This document shows, piece after piece, positions 3,731-51,438 of a stretch of 64,000 nt of DNA (the first letter of the stretch is position 1; each line of letters starts with the position of its first letter). Below the pieces are notes generated by a model, which was not told the DNA's origin, made no database searches, and worked only from the letters and a program-made list of their open reading frames with translations. Made by a program: the position numbers and the translations under genes. Origin of the DNA: Mobula hypostoma (taxonomy: Eukaryota); contig NC_086097.1 of NCBI RefSeq assembly GCF_963921235.1, positions 84,756,001-84,820,000 on the forward strand, read 5' to 3'.

Positions 3731-4145
3731 TGAGTTGCAACAGTAACTATTCATGGGAATCATATACAGTCAGTGGCCAGTTCATTAGGTACACCTGCTT
3801 GTTGATGCAAGTATCTGATCAGCTGATCATGTGGCAGCAACTCATCGCATAAAAGCATGTAGACATGGTCAAGAGGCTCAGTTGTTGTTTAGACTAAATA
3901 TGAGAATGGGGAAGAAATCTGATCGAAATGTCTTTGTGGAATGATTGTTGGCACCTGACAGGGTGATTTGAGTCCACGCACAAGTTTTGAAAGCTTATTG
4001 AGAATAATGCGAAAAAAAAAACAAGAATGTCCAGTGAGTAGCAGTTCTGTGGCTGAAAGTGGTCAGAGGAGAATGGCCAAACGGGTTCAAACTGACAAGA
4101 AGGTGACAGAAACTCAAATAATGTATTAAAACAGTGGTGTACAAT

Positions 4146-7100
4146 CTTCTTCGGTTGTCCATCGAAATCCGATGACGACGTCTACTCCTTTAACGGTGAG
4201 ATCTTTGATGACTACACAGTCCTATCCTGGACCCACAAGCTCTATTGCAGGCGGGACGTGTATATGTAGTAGTGGTGGCAACCATGGTTGCATTTCTCCT
4301 GGCTCTTCTGCTGTCTTCTGGTTGTTCTTTCCAACTCCAGAATACAAACCTCGTCCCTACACAGCTGTCGCCAAGTGGTACGGTCAGCAGCAACCTCCTC
4401 CAGGTCCTCGGGTCTGATCTTGCACTACCTTAAACGTTCTTCATCTGATCCTTATAGCGCTTCTTCTGTCCTCCAGCTGAGTGTCGACCATGATGTAGCT
4501 GGCCGTATAACACTCTGCAGGGTAGCCGACATAGGGGCATCCTTATCACGTGCCCCAGCCACTGCAGCTGATGCTGGGTGATCATGGCCTCAAAACTCCT
4601 GCAGTTGGTCTTTACAAGTATTTCAGTGCGAGGCACCCGCTCACGCCAGGTAATTCCCGGGATGTGCTGGAGGCAGCTAATGTGGAAACACTCCAAGGAC
4701 TTGATGTGACGGCTGTAGGTTACCCAAGCTTCACAGCTATAAAGGAGGCTGGTGACACAGACCGCCTGGTATACAGCGACCTTTGTGGAGGGATGAAGGC
4801 TCCTGTTCTGAAAGACTACGCCGAAGTCTCCCAAAGGCAGCTGATGCCTGTTTAATGCGGCTTTGGATGTCATTGCCAATGCCGCTATCCTCAGAGAGAA
4901 TGCTCCCCAGATATTTGAAAGATGGCACTACTGACAGCTCTTCATCACCAACAGTGAAGGCAGGTAGAGTGGGTGGGACACTGGTACTTCACTGGCAAAC
5001 CACTTCTGTCTTGGTGGTATTGACAGTCAGCCCCATCCTGCTGTATGCTCTCACTGCCACAGCAAGGACAGTCTAAAGATCCTCCAGAGTATGGGCCACA
5101 AGAGCACAGTCGTCTGCATACTGCAGCTCCAGGACCCGCTCTCTTCTGAGTTTGGTGGTTGCGTGGAGCCTCCTGATGTCAAAGAGGTTGCCATCTAATC
5201 TGACGTCCACTGCCACACTGCTGATGTCTTCAATCTCGTTGTGGAGAAGTTTGGTAACACACAAGAGGAAGATGTTAAAGAGTACTGGCGCTAGCACACA
5301 CCCCTGTCTCACCCCTGTGCGTAGAAGGAAGGACTCGGACTCTTGTCCTGCTACAGTCACCCGAGCAGTCATCCCATCGTGGAACTGGCGGAGGATGTTA
5401 ACAAATTTATTAGGACAGCCAAACCTGAGGAGGACATCCCATAAGAGCTCTCTTTGCACAGTGTCGAATGCTTTGGAGAGGTCGACAAAGGCCATAAACA
5501 GGACCTGATGTTGCTCCCGGCACTTTTCCTGAAGCTGCCGGGCTGTGAAGATCATGTCGATCATGCTCCTGTTCTTCCTAAATCCACACTGCGATTCAGG
5601 CAGCATTGACTCTGTGATGTTGCTGATGAGTCTCTGAAGCATCACCTCAGCCAGGACCTTTCCAGCAACGGAAAGGAGTGATATGTCCCTGCTATTGCCG
5701 CAGATGACCTTGACACCCTTGTTCTTATAAATGACAATGATGTTTGCATTTCTCCATTGCTGTGGGATGTTCTTATCAGCCCAGGCCTTGGTGATGTACA
5801 GTACTGGTAGAGGGTGCGCATACACATGTACCCTCCGTTCTTCAGTAACTCAGCAGGGATATTGTCAGTGCCAGGGGACTTGTTGTCCTTAAGGGAATGG
5901 ACAGCTGATAGAACCTCCTGGAAGGTTGGTGGTAGACTGAGGTCGTGGATAGGAGGAAGTTCAGGCAGTTTGTCCTGGATGGTGGGGTCTGCGTCAGAGT
6001 CCTCATTAAGCAGGGTGTTAAAATGCTCAACCCACCTCAGCAGAATGGTTTTCTGATTCTTCAGAAGTGTTAGATCATCTGCTGTTTTCAGGGGAGTAAT
6101 GCATCGATTTATTGGGCCATAGATGGTTTTGACAGCATTGTAAAAATTATACATGTCATTATTATTGGCAAAGGACCGGATTTCGTGTGCCTTGTCAGTC
6201 CACCACTCATTATGTGTGGCCTGTATTGCCTTTTGCACTTTCCTACAAGCTGCCTGCCAATGCTTCTTGATGCCGGTGGATGAATGGTTGTTTAAAGTTG
6301 CCCGGTGTGCTTTGTGCATGTCCTTAAGCCAGTTCTGGATGGTGTCTGAGTTATCGTCAAACCAGTCTTGGTGGTCCCTGCTCTTATGGCCGATGGATTG
6401 GGCTGCTGCCTCATAGAGCGCAGAGCTGATATAGGTCCACTGTTGTTCCGTGGTATTTTCTGAGCTCAGACAAGGTACCAGCTCCCTTAGTTTCTCAGCT
6501 AGAATGCATCAAAACTCACTTCTTGCTTCTGTGTTTCTCAGGCGGTTGCAATTTAGCCACTTTTTATTGGGTTTTTGCAGTCACGGGGGGTGCGGGCGGG
6601 GGGGAACGCACTTTCACATGGAGCTTGGCCACAATCCTATGGTGGTCAGTCCAGCACTCTGCACCTCTCATGGCACGGGTGATGAGAACATGCTTGATGT
6701 CACTACGTCTCACAATGATGAAGTCAATCATGTGCCAACGTTTAGAGCGAGGGTGCATCCACGGGGTCTTATATTTTGCCTTCTGCTGGAAGATGGTGTT
6801 GGTTATGGTAAGGTTATGCTCAGAACAAAGAGTAAGTAGCCTCATGCCATTTGCATTCACCTTGCCTATACAGTGCCTACCTAGCACTCCACTCCATATC
6901 CTGTTGTTCTGTCCCACCCTAGCGTTGAAGTCCCCAAGCAAAAGGACCTCATCATTCTTAGGGATCCGGCAAAGAGCTTCATCCAATGTCTGGTAAAAGC
7001 ATTCCTTGGCCTCATTCTCAGATGGCACAGTTGGTGCATAGGCACTGAGAAGCATGGTATAACATTTCTTTGCCGGGGGATACGGAGGGTCATTAGTCTT

Positions 7101-8359
7101 TCACTAATGCCAACAGGTGTTTCTGTGAGACTTGGTAGAAAGGTGTTCCTGATGGCCAGTCCTACTCCATGGAGATGTTGTCCGCCTGGGGGGAAACTTT
7201 TCCAGAAGAAGGTGCCTGAATCCCTTCCTCTGTTAAAGAGCCTTCATCCAGGAGCCTGGTCTCACTCAGGGCAGCAATATCAATGTTGTAGCGCCTCAGC
7301 TCAGCAGCAATCAAGGCTGTTCTCCGGTGAGGTCTGTCAGAGATGCCATATGAGTCCAGGAGAGTCCTTACCTTCCGTGTTGCCAGTTTTAGGTTGTATT
7401 GTTTCTTATTTTGACTGCAGTAGTGGAATAACTTATCCAGGTGAGTGATTGAATGGGCAATTTTTAGGCCACCTTTTCTAGGCCCTTCCCCAACTGGGTC
7501 CCCAAAGTGCAGTTCCTAAATAGGGATGCCCAGTCGCACAGGGGTCTGCAGAAAACAGTTGCCACTCAGTCCCAGCTGTTAACGACCAAATACTCTGTGC
7601 CGCTGCCATGCACGGTTCTGACTAGGAGCTCCCAGTCCATTCATACCTGCTCCCTTTGCCAGATGCCCCATTGCTGTCAGACTTCAACCAGGTATTGTTG
7701 ATCGTGGTCAGAGGTGGAGACCTGTACAAGGAAGATTTTAAAGTGCCACAGGGGGTGCGCCATCCCCAGTAGCACTATCTTCACCATGATGAGGTAAGTC
7801 CTGGTGGCAAGGGTGATCCCAGGACAACCGGTCCCACATCTTGGCTGCCGGGTCCTTGGTCTGTTAAGGCCCGCCTATTGCGTGCTGCCAGCGCATTGCT
7901 TTTCTGTCAGGGTGTGCTCCCTTAGCCTTGTCTCAATAGAGTTACCACAAGGCAGGGGGGCTATTTTCCCATAGCTGGGACAGTGGTTGACAGGCGCCAG
8001 GGCGTGTCCACACAGTGGTGGGCCTTCACGCTACGTCACTGGGGCCACTGCTGCTCCGAGATCCCCTGTAGTTTAGCCTGGGACTGTAAGATACCCAGTT
8101 TCCATGTGTGGCCCCGACAGGGCACTGCAGGAGTCTTGGTGGTGGAGAGGCTCTGTACTGGCAGGAGGAGGCTTACACACTCGGCTCCACTTTTCACCCT
8201 CTATTAAGAAGGCTAGCCAGCGGCAATAGCTGTAAGCAGAGAGCACTATGCGGCATACAGAATGCCGCATGCACTGACTACAAGCACGACAACACTATTG
8301 CACTACTGCACTAGGACACTTCACACGCACCCTGTGAGCAAATACTCCCATCCACACAC
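4146..8359 (-). mobile_element. Near full-length RTE-clade LINE (APE + RT + C-terminal C2H2-like motif), frameshifted
   Basis: APE 6564..7055 (SAYAPT, LLGDFNARVG, IDFIIVR, TDH); RT 5073..5825 (QCGFR, FVDLSKAFD, GVRQGCVLAP, YADD); 4430..4879; PACNRACGSRIGLCSHQRSH; TSD ggtgtacaat at 4136-4145 and 8360-8369. Confidence 0.93.
8063..8359 (-). ncRNA. HDV-like ribozyme fold at the RTE 5' end (L3 apparently decayed)
   Basis: P1 GUGUGUG (8359-8353)/CACACAU (8110-8104) with G1.U wobble; P2 CUCCUGCAGU/ACUACAGGGG (1 mismatch); P3 GCC/GGC; GG after P1'; P4 CUGGG..CCCAG; J4/2 GCUAA with catalytic-position C at 8076; L3 is non-canonical CUGUCGG. Confidence 0.7.
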
Positions 8360-8489
8360 GGTGTACAATAGAGCATCTCTGACCACACAATGCACCGAAC
8401 CGCGAAGTAGAGGGGCCACGGCAGGGGAAGACCACATTGGGTTCCACTCCTGTCCATAATAAAGTGGCCACTGAGTGTATACTGTTACT

Positions 8490-23859: not shown

Positions 23860-24411
23860 GTTGTTTGTCCATCATTGATGTCGATGAGGACCTCGACACC
23901 ATTATGATGGTGTCGAGACTAGCACGTGATTTGGATTTAAGTGAGGGAGAGTTGCGCAGCGTCAGCCTCACTCTCTCTTCCCAATTCCCATCTGGATCCA
24001 GTGGCAAGACAGAATCTAGACGGCTGGAGATGGAACTAGGTGCGGTGGATGACCAGGACATCTTCTGTGTCTTGTCCTGCTCTACACGTTCCACGACGCT
24101 TGCAGAGACCGCCTTCTTGACCGTTGGACCTTCCATTGGTCTTGTCCGCTCAATCCGCCGGAGTCTGTCTTCACATGCTGGGATAGACAACTCCCTATCT
24201 CACCGAGGGTCTGAGACCTGTCGGCTACTCTCACCTGGTTTAGCCGGCTTGTCAAAGCCGTTGCCCGGGGTGTGGCTGCTGTCGCATGCAAACAGCTACG
24301 GGGAGCCACAGGTGAGAGCTGAGTGCCAGGTGGGGACCAAAGGTGGACTAACCGCCCTGAAAAGGACGCGACATGTTCCCCACCAGAGGTGCTACCCCTC
24401 CCTGACACCCC
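23860..24411 (-). mobile_element. Full-length non-autonomous RTE-related retroelement (bipartite, SINE-like)
   Basis: TSD tat(a/g)gtacaaat at 23848-59 and 24412-23; 3' end catcgacatcaatgatggacaaacaac resembles the RTE 3' end catcggatttcgatggacaaccg. Confidence 0.8.
24228..24411 (-). ncRNA. HDV-like self-cleaving ribozyme with an extended L3
   Basis: P1 GGGGUGU (24411-05)/ACACCCC (24273-67); P2 CUCUCACCUG/CAGGUGAGAG; P3 GGC/GCC; L3 UCCCCGUA plus hairpin; GGGCAAC; P4 CGGCUU-ugac-AAGCCG; GCUAA with C at 24243. Confidence 0.85.
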
Positions 24412-30750: not shown

Positions 30751-33107
30751 CCATTCCCCCTCAATCCTGGTTTTGTTTGGCTTGCAAAATCTTTCGCTTT
30801 TCCGATTGGTCACAGTGTTTTTTTTAATAAGACCCCGACCCTATCTCTCACCCCCTCTACCCTCTCCCAACTGCATTTAATGCAAATTGGGGAACCTGCC
30901 TTGCTTGGAGCCACACACATACAAATAACTATTGTACTTCGCAAATCAGTGGGTTTCTGCATAACATTTGCTCTGCAGTAGTGCTGGGATTGATTAAGCG
31001 GTTGATGTACGTTATGTGTGTGGGTATTTATACTCATTGCATTCCGGGTGCACCTTGACAGGCTGACAGCTGTCGCGTTCATTCATTTCTGCTGAGCCCT
31101 TGTTTACCTCGGTCAAATTTAGCGACTGCGCCACGGTCTTCCCTAAATAGGGCAAGCACTTGCCTTCGGGAAGGGAGGCGGTTCGAGGACGCCGAGGGGG
31201 CTGCTTGGGGACTGCGTACCCTCCTCCGGCCAAGACGGCAGGAACTGCGGCCACAACCCGCTGACAACACTCGACAGGCGCCCGGGCAGCCCGTACCTTC
31301 TTGCTGACCATCACCAAAGTAAACGGGAATCCTCCAGGAAGCCCCAGCAGTGGCACACGTTGTTGTCGTGTGTACGCGACCGTCTGAATCCAAAGTTGCC
31401 CACGGGCCATGTGCGTCTCTTGCTGTTAGTTAATGAAGCTCATGTCCGGGGCGTTTTACTTCACTGTTTACAGAGCAGCATCCAGCCCATTCCAAAGCGG
31501 CTCCTCGCCTGCGACATTCCGGCTCGTCTCAGCCTCATCTTTAAGTTATTTTTTTAAATGATTCTGATTTCCTGCTATTCGCCCCTTAAAATCTAATTTT
31601 CAATTTGTGAAACGTCGACCGTCCGTTCCCCTCCTTAGATGCTGCCTGACCTGCAGCGATCTTCCAATGTTTTGTGTGTTGTTTTAGTTTGTGGTTTTTG
31701 ACAAGGAATCAACTGGTGATTAAGGTCTTTGACTATTAGTGCCCCCTCCCCCCAGATCTAGTTAGTTGCAGCCTGGGCGAGTGATGCTATATGGCGCAGT
31801 CAGTCCCCCTTGCCTTCATCCCATTCCCGCAACTATGGTTGCTCTAAACAGTCATGCCTCGGATGGCTTTTGCACGGTGCGTGGATTCCTCTGCGTGAGG
31901 GTGAGCACCTGTCACAGCTGACCACTCTATGTGATCTCGAGTTGTAAATCTGATGCGTAAACAAGACCTCCTAGTTCTGACTTGTGGATAAGAAATCATA
32001 GTTATAATGAGTTTGACATAATATTTTGTAATGAAGGCATTGCTGGTCATCGTAAGTTACCCATGAGACGGTGCTGTTGAGCTGCTACATGAAGTGTCTG
32101 AGTTGATGGGGCAGGAACAGCGCTGTTCGGGGTGTGTGTGTGCTTCCTGGAATCTGACCTGCCAACACTGACGGACAGTTTGTAAGTTGGTACGATGGTG
32201 CTCCCAGCACCTGTTGCCCATGTTTTTTTGGAAGTGGCTCTGTGGAAGCGGGCGCTGCGGCTCAGGTGGGAGGAGTGAGTGTTCAGCACCTCCAGTGTGA
32301 GCATCCTTACAACTAACCCCTTGGCCGAAGGTGAATTCCCAGTCCAGTCATGCTAGCTTCTGCTGCTGTTCCCAGGTTCCCTTGTAACTGCTGAAGAACT
32401 CAGACTTTACCTGGTTAAGAGAATATCTCTGGCCCCTTGCTACTGATGGGTTCAAAAATTTAAGGCACATGGAGGTCCATTGACCTGACTAGGGAATGGA
32501 TGTCTCTGTTTGTCTCATTGCAGTTACATTTTTACATTTTGAAAAGTTGTGGTTGGGATCGGTTTGGAATTCTGCTCATTTGCTTAGGTAACAGGTCGGG
32601 CACCATACAGAATAACAGAGCAAATCTGAAAGGCCAATGCCTAATCTTAGTCTAAATTTCTTAAATAATTACATTCCCCCCAGTTTCTATTCAGGTTACT
32701 TTGATAGTCCTAAAGTGATTGAGCCTGATGTTTTACTGCTTATGCATGAGAGGTACCTGACCTCTTTTTGGTCCAGTGGGTGAAATCGCATGCTCATAAT
32801 GTCATGGTTCCACTTCCTGCCACACGGTGTGTGAGAGTCCCAAGGTACCATGTCCCACAGCCCAGCCAGTGGCCTGTGGAGTGTTATTGCACATCTCCTT
32901 GCTAAGTCCTGTTGTATCAAATTTTGTGAAAAGGGAAATGAAAAGCTGATTGTGGAGAGCATCTCCTGTCTTGAAAGCTGCAGCTATGCTCTGCTGGCTA
33001 ACACCGGCATTTTCTTTTTGAAATGTTTTTCAGATACGACAGTGGAGACCCTCCAGCTCTGAAAATTGATTTGATTTACGGGGGACGTCGAGAGTGAACC
33101 TGTTTGC

Positions 33108-34870
33108 ATGGCGTGGTTTGGATTGCAGACATTCATGTCATTTTGCCTCGTGGGCTTTGTATCAGTAATGTTGTTAATGCACCCACCTTCTGTGGATGCA
33201 GAAACACCTGGACCTGCAAGTTCTCCAAAGCAAAACAGCTCCTGCATGGGCAACTATGAATGTAAGCAGGGAGTTATTTTGCCAATATGGTACCCAGAAG
33301 ATCCATCCCTTGGAGATAAAATTGCCAGAGTTATTGTTTACTTTGTGGCAATGATCTACATGTTTTTGGGAGTCTCCATTGTAGCAGACCGCTTTATGGC
33401 ATCTATAGAAGTGATTACCTCGCAGGAAAAAGAAATTACCATCAACAAACCCAATGGAGAGACAAACACGACGATGGTACGAGTTTGGAATGACACTGTG
33501 TCCAACTTAACGCTTATGGCTTTGGGATCATCTGCTCCAGAAATCATGCTCTCACTGGTTGAAGTTTGTGGCCATGGGTTTGAATCTGGTGAGCTTGGTC
33601 CTGGTACCATTGTGGGCAGTGCAGCTTTTAATATGTTTGTCATTATTGCCATCTGCGTATATTCCATTCCTGATGGCGAGACCAGGAAGATCAAACACCT
33701 ACGTGTTTTTTTTGTCACAGCCGCTTGGAGCATTTTTGCCTACATCTGGCTGTACATGATCCTTGCCGTCTTTTCACCCGGCATTGTACAGGTGTGGGAA
33801 GGGTTGGTCACCTTTTTGTTCTTCCCCATCTGCGTCCTACTCGCCTGGATCGCTGACCGCAGACTCCTTTTCTACAAGTATGTGCGGAAGAAGTATCGCA
33901 CCAACAAGAACCGGGGCCTCATCATCGAGACCGAAGGTGAACATCCCAAAGGTATCGAGATGGACGGCAAGCTAGTGAACTCTCACTTCATGGATGGGAC
34001 ACTGGCAGCCTTGGATGGGAAAGAAGTGGACGAATCCCGCAAAGAGATGATCCGCATCCTTAAAGAACTGAAGCAAAAGCACCCTGAGAAAGAACTCGAT
34101 CAGCTGGTGGAAATGGCGAACTACTATGCTCTTTCCCACCAGCAGAAAAGCAGGGCCTTCTATCGAATCCAAGCCACCAGGATGATGACTGGCGCAGGCA
34201 ATATCCTGAAGAAGCACGTGTCCGAGCAAGCCAAAAGAAGCATGAGCATCCTTGAGGTGAGGCCGGACACTCCTGAAGATCTTTGCTCCCGCATTTTCTT
34301 TGAGCCATCTGCTTACCAGTGCCTGGAGAACTGTGGTGCGGTGTCACTGACTGTGATCCGCAAAGGCGGGGACATCTCCAACACGGTGACCGTGGACTAC
34401 AAGACGGAGGATGGCTCGGCCAACGCCGGTGCAGACTATGAGTTTAGCGAAGGAACCCTGGTCTTCAAGGCAGGTGAAACACAGAAAGAAATCACCGTTG
34501 GCATCATCGATGATGACATCTTTGAGGAAGACGAGCATTTCTTTGTGCGGCTTAACAACCTCAGAGTGATGGAACTGGAAGATGCGCTGGAGCCAAACAG
34601 CGTGCCGTACCCGAAAGCTTTGATCGTTTCCCCACTTGTTGCCACTGTGACTATTCTAGATGATGACCACGCAGGTATCTTTACATTTGAAAGCGATGTT
34701 GTCCATGTCAGTGAGAGTATCGGAGTGATGGAAGTGAAAGTGCTGAGAACGTCTGGGGCACGTGGGACAGTCATCGTTCCCTTTCGGACGATAGAAGGAA
34801 CGGCAAAAGGGGGTGGCGAGGACTTTGAAGACACCTATGGGGAGCTGGAGTTTAGAAACGATGAGACTCT
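33108..34870 (+). CDS. SLC8A3: Sodium/calcium exchanger 3 (NCX3), first coding exon (exon 33034-34870); the CDS continues beyond the window
   Basis: Signal peptide MAW..., alpha-1 repeat (GSSAPE, GSAAFN), XIP RRLLFYKYVRKKYRT, CBD1 (IIDDDIFEEDE, TILDDD), start of CBD2; NCX3-typical HPKGIEMDGK and MANYYALSHQQ; acceptor ttttcag at 33033; phase-2 donor CT|GTAAGT at 34871. Confidence 0.96.
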
Positions 34871-37800
34871 GTAAGTAGAATTCCTATCCCACATCTCTGA
34901 ATGTCTTGTTTTCTGTACTATTGGAAAACTAACTAGTAATACCTGTTTTGTTTAAAATTACAGCAGCAATTAAAGGAAGTTGGTGTTGAGCAGAACCATG
35001 GCTGTTTAATTTGGGAAAACATTTGTAAATATGTTTTCTTTGCACATCATTTTAACCCTTCAGTACACTCACAAAGTTAAAAAAAATGCAACTTACTCCT
35101 GGACTTGAGCGCATGGGTATTGTTTGAAGATGTCATTAATTCCACAATGCCTTATTGCTTTGGCTGACCATAGTAAAATACCTAAAAATGGACAAAACAC
35201 ACATAAGTGTTACTGTGATTGGATATTAAACAGACTTGGGCATTTCTTGACGACTGTGACTCTGCTGAGATACACATCGTGTAATGAAAGCAGCATATAC
35301 AAAAAGTCAAATCTTGCTGAAGTTTTTGTACATTGTTAATCTGATAGGCTTTTCCAGAGAGTGGGTTATATTACAATTAAACTACATACCAGAGTGCAGC
35401 CTTCCCTTATGACAAATCTTACAATAACCAGATCTCTTCCTAGACCCCTGCACTGAGATCCACAATTGTCAGGCTGCCCTTTTAAGGCAAGGAAGCAATT
35501 TTCTATGAGGAATCAGGCTCTCAATGTGCAGTACCTGTTTTTTTTTAAAGTTCCTTTTTAGTTATTTTTGTGATACTTTATCAATTAGTCAAAACAATCA
35601 TTTTAGAAAGTAAAAAAAATCGTGAGTATTGACATTGTCGTGTATCAGTTGCAGCACACTATTGTAATCCCTCCTTATTGGCATGGAGTTTTCCCGGGGG
35701 AGTACCATGGTGTTTTTTATCTAGATAGATGGATACAAGTGAAATGTTACTGGAGCTTGCTATTTTAATGTTCAGGTTAATTGTACCTTTAATAACCGTA
35801 TCCCTGATTAAAACCAGTTGAAAACTCCAAGATAATTTCCTGTTGTTTGAAGAGTCCATTGCCTCCAAATGTGGCTGCCCCTCATGTCACCAAGACAAGC
35901 TTCTGCAGCTTCCTCCCACACTGGCACCTGTTGGCACATTAATCCAGCACTAATCAGTTTTACTTGCAGCAACCAGGATTTCACAGAAGTCTGACCCAAC
36001 TGTCCCAGTTGTTACTGCTGCAGTTGCTGCAGAACACAAGACTGTAAAATCAGTTGTCTAAATGCAAATTGCTTACAACTGTTCACACTTGAGTGGCTTC
36101 AATTGACTGCTGATCAAGGAAGATCAAAGCGGTAAAAAGAAGCAAATTTAGAAAGTAGAAACAAGAGTGTCAAATTTGTAAATTAGAGGATGGCTCATCT
36201 CCAATCCACCTGCTCTTTTGGGTGCTGAGTGACAAATTCCGCCTGACTGCCTGGGTCTGTGAGAGATTATGGTCTGTGTTTATGCTGACATGTTTGCACA
36301 GAAACCTGTGTGCAACGTCACCCTGGCACTTTGCTGACTGCATCCCAAGCTAAAATTGTGCGGATCATCATTAACTACAGGTTCAATAGTGATACTTTTG
36401 ATCAAGAAATCAAAGAACTGGAATAAAATTCTTCTTGGATTGAAAAATAAGGAATTAAATATTAAAGGTACAAGCATCATCTTTGGTTTATCGCAAGTTC
36501 CTCTTGGACTTAGTTAAGCAAATTTGTGGATTAAATGATGTTGTTTCGCTTGATGGGTGATGATGTTAGTGTCAGCCATTAAAAAGGCTCCCAGGATAGT
36601 GATGTGAACTACCTCTTGTTTGGCAGTGTATCTGTTCTGTTGATGCTGGCAAGGGCATTCTGCACTGTTTCTTCCCAGCATTATTGCTGTTCACTAGAGT
36701 CACAGGACCAGGAGAATGCTAGAGTAATTTAAGAATTTGTAAGTAGAGCTGAACTCAGAACATGCGTTTAAATGGACCGGCTGGTTTCTGCCATGTGGAA
36801 TGTGCAAATTCAGCCGAGTTCAGTGCCTTGCAACCCACCTCTCGCAAGGTTGGTTTAAAAGCTGGTGTGTTGAAGTGATCTGTCTAATTTGCTCCAGAAA
36901 AAAATAAGGTGGTTGGAGTTAGATTTTTATTCTAAATTTCCAACCTCCCTTTACTCCCTTTAAAAATGATTGTAGTGTTCTCAGGAACATTATTTTTTTT
37001 TAATAAGGATTTTATCCATAAGTAGTTTCTGCTGAAATAGATGCTGAACCAATAGATGAATTTATTCAAAAATTATCTAGTTATTGTCCTCTGAATGGAT
37101 ACAGTTTAGTAATGAGTATTGGAAGTATTTGATTTTCATAATCATAATTATCCCTTTTTGAAAGGACAACATTGGACAGGCTCGTGCATTGTGTGTGTAT
37201 TAAAGAGTGAACTATGCAATGTGCCTTAAAGTGGACTGGTCTAATAAGTAAATTGATTGGCTGTGTGTTTCTCTTGCAGCAACACTGGATGTTATTGGTT
37301 GTACCATCAAATTGTTACAACCGTCAAATCGCTGTTATGTAGATCTGCAGTGATATACTGTATGTAGTCCCTAGACTGATTCTGTGGTCTGTTTATAAAA
37401 AGTCTGGAAGTAGCCAATTTTGTTTTATTTTGTTATGTGAGTAAATGTTATAGAACAGTGTCATCTGTGGTATCTTGCATCAGGACAACAAGCTGATTCT
37501 GTGTAAATTTATTTTCAACACAGCAAGTAGGAGCATTTGGTTTAAAGGTGTATGCAACCACTGACTGTGTATCTTGAACTGAAGCTGTCATTGGGAGATT
37601 TGTAAGATTAAAAAAAATATATATCCACAGGTTACTGAATGTTCAGTGTTTTTATTTATAGTACAGATCTTCAGTTCATGATGTCTGTACATTCTGTGCT
37701 GTTTCAGTGGGTATTGCATGGCTTTTGAAAGGTGTAAAGGCCAAATTTTGTAAATAAACAACGGAGGATAATATAGCTTTTTATCGCTTTTGTAACTTTG

Positions 37801-49774: not shown

Positions 49775-50253
49775 TCTATCATTGAAGCCTACGTCATCAA
49801 GAACCACCTAAGATGGAGCGGTCATGTTCGGATGAAAGATGAACGTCTGCCGAAACAAATCTTATACTCCCAGCGTAAAGAAGGCAAACATAAAAGAGGC
49901 GGACAACAGAAGAGATTTAAAGATGTCTTAAAAGCCAACATGAAGAAATGTAGCATCGACATGAACAATTGGGAAACCAATGCCAAGGACAGGAAACTCT
50001 GGCACACCATCACCCGAGAAGGAACAACAACTTTCGAAGCCAACAGTTGTGCAGAATTAGAAGAAAAGAGAAGAAACTGGAAAGAGAGGCAGCAACAACC
50101 AAAGTCCGATCTGTCATCTGGAACTACCTGTCCAGAATGCGGAAGAACTTTCAAAGCCAAGATTGGACTCATAAGCCAGTTGAGAGCCCATAAGTAGATC
50201 AATAGAATGAAGACCCTCATCCTCGACCTCGAGGGATAGCCACGATGACGACG
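49775..50253 (+). mobile_element. Young 5'-truncated RTE LINE 3' end
   Basis: Open ORF 49832..50197 (RLPKQILY..KRGGQQKRFKD..CPECGRTFKAKIGLISQLRAH); (gac)n tail; TSD acttt(t/c)catcca at 49763 and 50254. Confidence 0.9.
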
Positions 50254-51438
50254 ACTTTCCATCCAGTACCTTTTTTTTTATATTGAATTTAAGTTTCTTT
50301 TTACAATGTTCCCAACCATGGTCAGTAGCAGGTTGAAGATAAACTATTCCTCCATTTGCAAAACATTTTCAAATTTTCTATGTTGTAGTTTATTCAGCAT
50401 TAGGTCAGATGAATGATCAAATCCACGATACTTCCCTTTCAAATTTTTAATCTCTGTATTAGAGGTCAGAGGTGATTGGAGTTCAGTATTGTCAAGAAAT
50501 AGCACAAACTGACTTTATGTGTATTGCTGCAGAGCAAAAAAGGCTTCACAGTTCTACCAGTAAAAGCTGGTGGGGTATAGATAACCTGCTTGTGCAGCAA
50601 TTACTAGTTAGATTTTTGAACAATGGTCATGATAACATTTAATTTCTTCTCAACATAACTCTTTGACTCAGTATAGACTTTGAGTATTCTACTATAATGA
50701 GAGATCAAGACAGGGTTAATGGGAATTATATAAACTGAAAGATCACTAACTCAGGATTATGGATTTACAGTGGGGGGTGCTTTCAAATACTGGAAATGTG
50801 ATGGGGGGGGAACAGCAGAAACTGCTTGAAATGCTCAGCAGTGTGGATGCATTTGATTCCTTCACTATAGGATATAGGACACTGGGCTGAAAGCCAAGGT
50901 CCTTTGTCAACCTGACCCTGCAAATCAGTTCTCTTCCTGAACATCAGGATCTGTGAGACCTTGGTCAAAGTGCATCACCTTGCAGTGAGTGTAATCATCG
51001 ATAACAAAATTCACTGCCACTTTCAGTATGTCAGAGCAACCTTTGAGGAAAGGATTATGAACATAAAACTCTCAAATATGACACCAAACTTGTAGTCAGC
51101 AGAGCAACAGTAATTCCCGCATATGGTGGAGAAGGAGATAATTGCAAAGTGGACTTCTCCAGGCAGTGGAAGAGCAGCCTGTTGCCTCTGCAAAATCTTC
51201 CAACCTCAGCGGTGAATCAGTAATCCTAAGAACCCAAGCTGATAAACCCGAAAATCTGAAATAAAAACAGAAGATGCTCAATTTGCTCAAGTCAGGCAGC
51301 ATCTGTGGAAAGAGAAACAGTTTCCGGTTGAAGAACTTTTGTTAGAATTGGAGAAGAAAGAAAGCAAGGTGGTATTTCATTGCAGAGAGTGTACATGATC
51401 CTGAATATTTCTGGTATTTTGTATTTTTAGAACCAATA

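Follow-up and report, generated by a model that had tools for sequence, protein, structure and literature searches.

Does the LINE copy on the minus strand at 4146–8359 of this window (the whole stretch of DNA analysed here, 64,000 nucleotides) begin with a self-cleaving ribozyme, and if so is the ribozyme of this copy still able to cut? A sequence-only reading of the window placed an HDV-like fold at the element's exact 5' end and judged the copy probably inactive. HDV-like ribozymes that cleave at the precise junction have been described at the 5' ends of RTE elements, as stated, citing Ruminski 2011, in passages of PMC6765202, PMC5786205 and PMC3774820. The same passages report the proposals that such ribozymes release the element from a co-transcript and aid its translation. 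Is the fold seen here one of this kind, or chance pairing in GT-rich sequence? Or does the element start at its first base for another reason, such as a promoter?

The host element

The element is a full-length (~4.2 kb), decayed and frameshifted RTE-type non-LTR retrotransposon, and the copies of its family are collinear with it. One copy of a 10 bp target site duplication (TSD), GGTGTACAAT, abuts its first nucleotide, G1, at 8360–8369, and the other, GGTGTACAAT, lies beyond a short GAA-type tail at 4136–4145. Within these bounds is a single ORF with frameshifts and stops (4217–7480, minus strand), comprising an APE endonuclease (~7428–6600) and a reverse transcriptase (RT, ~5798–4818). This bears out the earlier description of a near full-length RTE LINE whose first nucleotide adjoins a TSD at 8360. 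The Pfam matches in the ORF are PF14529 and PF00078 only. Intact homologues are ~1000–1100 aa long and alignable across the whole ORF, with up to 85% identity over the RT piece. The 5' UTR of ~900 nt contains no long reading frame.

Elements of the RTE clade have one ORF, encoding an APE endonuclease and an RT, and are without ORF1 and RNase H. The TSD is 10 bp in the window copy and 8–13 bp in other copies, and the tail is GAA/GA. RTE TSD lengths peak at 10–12 bp and RTE 3' tails are microsatellite-like, according to passages of PMC4245944 and PMC6007223, respectively. The single ORF, the TSD length and the tail therefore fit the RTE clade, a placement made by anatomy rather than from a tree.

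In the 3.48 Gb genome an initial search yielded 427 candidate matches to the 5' region; for the 3' end the figure was 1305, and scoring covered 40 of each. Four copies (L041, L031, L023 and L028) are broken at element base 650–672; in L041 base 672 is fused to base 4054, resembling a bipartite non-autonomous derivative. The RT piece at 5076–5849 (minus strand) has 74–78% identity to proteins named from four teleost fishes, which suggests horizontal transfer if the host is not a teleost. Elsewhere in the window, a large coding exon of an Na/Ca exchanger (SLC8A-type, with Na_Ca_ex and Calx-beta domains) lies at 33075–34874 on the plus strand; the LINE is antisense to it and 25 kb away.

Layout of the fold

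The first 297 bases of the element (8063–8359, minus strand) have the layout of an HDV-like ribozyme, with P1, P2, P3 and P4 in the order and pairing of that class and a predicted cut 5' of G8359. The 5' strand of the 7 bp P1, GUGUGUG, is the first 7 nt of the element (8359–8353) and is led by G1. It is followed by a J1/2 insertion of 219 nt (8352–8134), the 5' half of which is rich in indels between copies. The catalytic core occupies 8063–8133 and begins with the 5' strand of P2 (8133–8124), the P3 strand GCC (8123–8121), an L3 of CUGUCGG (8120–8114) with three substitutions private to this copy, and the P3' strand GGC (8113–8111). The 3' strand of P1, CACACAU (8110–8104), leads into GG (8103–8102), the P1.1 partner of the L3 cytidines. 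P4 is formed by CUGGG and CCCAG (8098–8094 and 8082–8078), and J4/2 is GCUAA (8077–8073), in which C8076 is equivalent to C75. The 3' strand of P2 (8072–8063) makes nine of ten pairs with the 5' strand, the tenth being C·A. Every part that the sequence-only reading had named was found in its place on the minus strand, including the J1/2 of about 220 nt.

This region has the highest HDV-descriptor score in the window, 40, the next best being 33. The same score was reached in one of 195 shuffled windows, a rough figure since shuffles could come out shortened. Folding energy does not set the region apart from shuffles (z -0.73). No match to the Rfam HDV-type models was obtained in the window at E≤10 or in 14 loci at E≤5; a J1/2 of 219 nt probably falls outside these models.

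The family core and the damage to this copy

In HDV-like ribozymes L3 has the form YCC.CG, with P1.1 pairing to GG. The family has this form and the window copy does not. L3 begins with UCC in 28 of 29 other genomic copies, which were chosen by overall similarity to the window and not by L3; it is UCCUCGG in 19 of 28 parsed copies, and CUGUCGG is found in the window copy alone. Whether the family consensus would revert at L3 was a check set beforehand, and it reverts to UCCUCGG. The same family bases at 8118–8120 are present in contigs from seven other runs, three possibly RNA and four other; a fourth possibly-RNA run has no coverage of the L3 site, and as contigs these data are unable to show an RNA start. 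The change from UCC to CUG is thus private to the window copy and alters both of the cytidines through which L3 would form P1.1 with GG, for which reason this copy likely no longer cleaves, as had been supposed from its departure from UCCUCGY.

The remainder of the core is variably preserved. The catalytic C of J4/2 is present in 41 of 44 parsed family copies. The C·A mismatch in P2 is the majority state, with the G-paired form in only 4 of 44. Copies differ from the family majority by a median of 4%, and 8 of 42 parsed copies pass a test for a fully intact core. A genome search with the core pattern gave 52 matches, against 1 for the reversed control. Four of the matches are not from the family, and two of these, L035 and L043, do not fold as a ribozyme.

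Two details of the sequence-only reading apply to this copy and not to its family. The first is the G1·U wobble in P1. The last base of the P1 3' strand and the base after it are U|G in 23 of 44 copies, C|G in 10, C|A in 7 and G|G in 3, with one misparse and no instance of U|A; C is also the majority base at that position in contigs from the runs of four other organisms. Such a distribution is what decay of a C|G state at a CpG leaves behind, and the master therefore had a G1–C pair. The second is a 9 bp hairpin within J1/2 (8248–8270, strands 8270–8262 and 8256–8248), which is perfect here, as claimed, and in only 3 of 30 copies, 21 of the 30 having a U·C mismatch in it. Separately, a contig over 8041–8197 from possibly-RNA run X6 shows, at high depth, a core that has diverged, with the U-A pair at the end of P2 changed to A-U on both strands.

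Where the copies begin

The claim that full-length copies begin at G1 holds in two sets of copies, which start at or just past this base. In the similarity-picked set 28 of 29 copies start at element base 1–5, 18 of them at base 1, and the DNA upstream is unrelated; this set is biased toward full 5' ends. Among 21 non-redundant copies picked by the core pattern only, 11 start at base 1–5 and 16 at base 1–19. Seven duplicate loci and two non-family matches had been dropped ahead of these counts. In the runs of four other organisms, where the family L3 is shown, contig cover falls near zero past 8359–8367.

Of the 39 copies selected through the 3' end, 10 lie in runs of (GT)n (L188, L193, L195, L198, L202, L203, L204, L208, L210 and L217), against a background of 0.7–0.8%, and the element itself starts with GUGUGUG. 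That this start aids full-length insertion into (GT)n was considered and rejected, (GT)n being upstream of only 2 of 29 5'-complete copies.

Inverted 5' ends

In some insertions the 5' segment is inverted and the 3' segment that it joins is in sense orientation. This is the case in 8 of 50 other 5'-containing copies (L004, L007, L021, L024, L025, L034, L045 and L056), in addition to the complex case L036. The 39 copies picked by their 3' end comprise 34 that are 5'-truncated, 1 that is full-length with later insertions and 4 (~10%) that are inverted (L201, L206, L209 and L223). TSDs of 8–13 bp surround the whole inverted insertion in L004, L007, L021, L025, L034, L045 and L223, and one of 7 bp does so in L206; none was found for L024, L056, L201 and L209. 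In the copies with TSDs both segments lie inside one TSD pair, as twin priming would leave them. In 8 inverted copies the inverted part reaches base 1–9 and joins ORF sequence within 0–5 nt, without upstream host DNA. Often 1–3 kb of the element is missing at the inversion junction.

In twin priming the second cDNA extends to the 5' end of the RNA, as described in part of PMC2912911. As the inverted part often stops at or close to G1, the template RNA likely began at G1, the predicted cut site, although this support is indirect. Such inversions are compatible with cleavage, and also with transcription initiated at G1 by a promoter.

Distant relatives

A metagenome scan yielded 66 RTE-like loci with ~38–72% protein identity, 47 of which have DNA upstream of the ORF start. 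Three descriptor passes, together with inspection by eye, found sense-strand HDV-like cores upstream of the ORF in 10 of the 47 (L062, L067, L070, L075, L077, L089, L096, L101, L113 and L125). The two stricter passes gave 3 sense loci versus 0 antisense and 8 versus 0, and the loosest 11 versus 8. Only 4 or 5 of these loci have a clear P1 led by G1. A further descriptor allowing an insertion in L3 found no convincing additional ribozyme among the 47.

The sequences of P1, P2 and P3 differ in the relatives and their pairing is retained. A table of 12 rows shows pairing in 100 of 108 cells for P2 and in 35 of 36 for P3, and more than one type of pair occurs within each column; the comparison is partly circular, since a pairing descriptor was what found the relatives. 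The catalytic C in J4/2 is present in all 12 rows. The L3 UCC.CG, the J4/2 C and the GG are kept between elements that are ~40–53% identical in protein.

A three-way junction in J1/2

Just upstream of P2, within J1/2, the window copy has a three-way junction at 8221–8157 (minus strand), in the order stem A, UA, hairpin B, GAAAA, hairpin C, CU and stem A'. It is common to this copy and five of the distant relatives, with compensatory changes, and was noticed after the relatives had been chosen on other criteria. A descriptor of the junction has exactly 5 matches in the 258 kb of metagenome loci, none antisense, and 1 in the window. In an alignment of nine rows, four of them from the window family, 97% of cells pair, compared with 38–56% in slid controls, and 8 of 15 pairs have double changes. 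A model of the junction run on 325 kb matches only the five training loci and the window copy. No description of it was found in literature drawn mostly from outside subscription journals.

The layout of the junction is like that of the int-alpA RNA motif (Rfam RF02996), which matches it weakly in L077 (E 0.4, 25.7 bits) and L113 (E 0.96, 24.3 bits). These are the only non-microsatellite Rfam matches in the 14 loci, and the Rfam scan gave no int-alpA match on the window copy. Unlike the bacterial int-alpA RNA, the junction stands in a eukaryotic LINE, and its scores are below the gathering threshold of 35.8.

The hammerhead ribozyme carries a CUGANGA strand. The junction was rejected as a twister or a hammerhead, for neither has an Rfam match in the window or the 14 loci and the CUGG letters of the junction are paired and covarying. 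A link with a missing start codon was likewise dropped: 4 of the 5 junction-bearing relatives are AUG-less, compared with 19 of 32 relatives overall, which is no signal.

Other RTE-derived elements in the window

A second element with an HDV-like head is present at 23860–24411 (minus strand), in agreement with the earlier claim of two such RTE-related elements. It is young, bipartite, RTE-derived and short (~550 bp), and the 5' strand of its P1, GGGGUGU, is at its 5' boundary. The genome has 3399 candidates for it, with copies ~95% alike. Its L3 is 28 nt with an inserted hairpin. Many copies of this family have a 9 nt duplication of the GGGGUGU start, which gives two possible P1 registers. The wider proposal, that ribozyme 5' processing is common in the RTE families of this genome, rests on these two families only; that they share the design is supported. 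A further RTE piece at 49780–50260 (plus strand) belongs to a different family (~40–48% protein identity). As a 5'-truncated 3' piece without a ribozyme, it was rejected as the second HDV-headed element.

What the fold did, and alternatives

The best explanation of the locus is a decayed RTE-type LINE headed by an HDV-like ribozyme, the active master of which probably cut its own RNA from host read-through just before G1. The fold has the layout of the class, its first base adjoins the TSD, the family core is canonical and the window copy is damaged. A read-through host transcript would carry the element, and the fold would cut it just before G1. If the master behaved as published HDV-like ribozymes do, cleavage mediated by C8076 would leave a 5'-OH RNA beginning at G1, reverse transcription up to that end would yield copies starting at G1, and a structured J1/2 would, as in drz-Agam-2, hold P1 close to P2. 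Translation of the uncapped RNA would then proceed without an AUG. Among the 23 family copies in which the endonuclease start can be read, 21 have no in-frame AUG after the last upstream stop; the same is true of 19 of 32 relatives, and the window copy has none ahead of the endonuclease. The AUG-less ORF is compatible with the IRES-like role proposed for such ribozymes in a passage of PMC6765202.

Could the element instead contain an internal promoter starting at G1, with the fold retained chiefly because it shields the RNA as a cap would or serves translation, cleaving little or not at all? A promoter would likewise give a fixed 5' end, and the long 5' UTR of ~900 nt, the P2 mismatch in most copies and the ORF without AUG would suit it, as would the cap-like protection credited to the R2 ribozyme fold in part of a review (PMC13708176). 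However, the residues specific to catalysis are those kept across the ~40–53% protein identity of the relatives, and the element start is G1 to the base in two families, so that we regard this explanation as unlikely. It is very unlikely that the window copy is itself still an active ribozyme cutting a local transcript: although P1, P3, P4, GG and the catalytic C are intact, L3 positions 1–3 are all changed with the loss of both P1.1 cytidines, and the element, being antisense to the exchanger exon, would not fold in that pre-mRNA. Chance pairing, aided by GT-rich sequence and a 220 nt search space for P1, draws on the low complexity of GUGUGUG, the (GT)n surroundings of the family, the z-score and the one equal shuffle, but is hardly credible and already largely refuted by the canonical L3 of the family, the 52 versus 1 core-pattern matches and the distant relatives whose different P1, P2 and P3 sequences still pair.

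Beyond cleavage by the master, a further proposal is offered tentatively and may well be wrong. The elements may form a subgroup of RTE 5' ribozymes with a conserved, undescribed J1/2 junction of int-alpA-like layout that has its own job, for example ribosome recruitment to the AUG-less ORF or binding of the RTE protein. With this would go twin priming in about one insertion in ten, the inversion junctions recording the in-vivo cut site.

Comparison with known systems

Judged by its sequence, the family appears to be one of the known HDV-like RTE 5' ribozymes, and the window copy to have lost the L3 of that class; the design itself is published, large J1/2 included. As in the RTE 5' ribozymes of Ruminski et al. 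2011, compared here through descriptions in parts of the citing papers (PMC6765202, PMC5786205 and PMC3774820), the carrier is an RTE-type LINE and cleavage is predicted at the exact 5' end. The difference is that this is a family of a 3.5-Gb animal genome, so that 5' processing by a ribozyme would take in a further RTE family from a large animal genome.

In drz-Agam-2-1 of Anopheles gambiae, the stability of J1/2 speeds cleavage (part of PMC4908430), and by analogy a stable J1/2 would do so here. The two are alike in their large structured J1/2 and extended P2 (12 bp there, 10 bp here). In place of a conserved UA/GAAAA/CU three-way junction, the passages of PMC4908430 on drz-Agam-2-1 have a P1.2 helical domain. 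The R2 5' ribozymes share the core. Silkmoth R2 ribozymes have a J1/2 of 216–498 nt, and a change in L3 can abolish cleavage (part of PMC3774820). R2, according to the same source, is specific to rDNA and its P1 often comes from 28S, whereas P1 of the window family is encoded by the element and insertion is dispersed; the silkmoth R2 J1/2 is little conserved, whereas one part of J1/2 covaries here.

The inversions resemble those left by L1 twin priming as treated in parts of PMC4245944 and PMC2912911, being flanked by TSDs with an inverted 5' and a sense 3' segment. They differ in belonging to an RTE-type family and in often having lost 1–3 kb at the junction. Apart from a single Nimb-2 insert, the one element to yield inversions in the assays of PMC4245944 was human L1 in human cells, and RTE was not among the elements assayed (part of that paper). 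No description of RTE 5' inversions was found in literature drawn mostly from outside subscription journals, which is weak evidence of absence. Our copies point to twin priming outside L1 as well, and their inversions would mark in the genome the position at which the template RNA started.

The covarying J1/2 junction and the TSD-flanked 5' inversions are thus modest additions to a known kind of element. The junction is a well-delimited structure on which roles of large J1/2 domains other than faster cleavage can be studied, and a family containing both intact and broken natural copies supplies ready test material. RTE 5' UTRs are used in gene-insertion platforms (part of PMC13708176), where it is useful in practice to know that a UTR of this sort may cut off whatever is put upstream of it.
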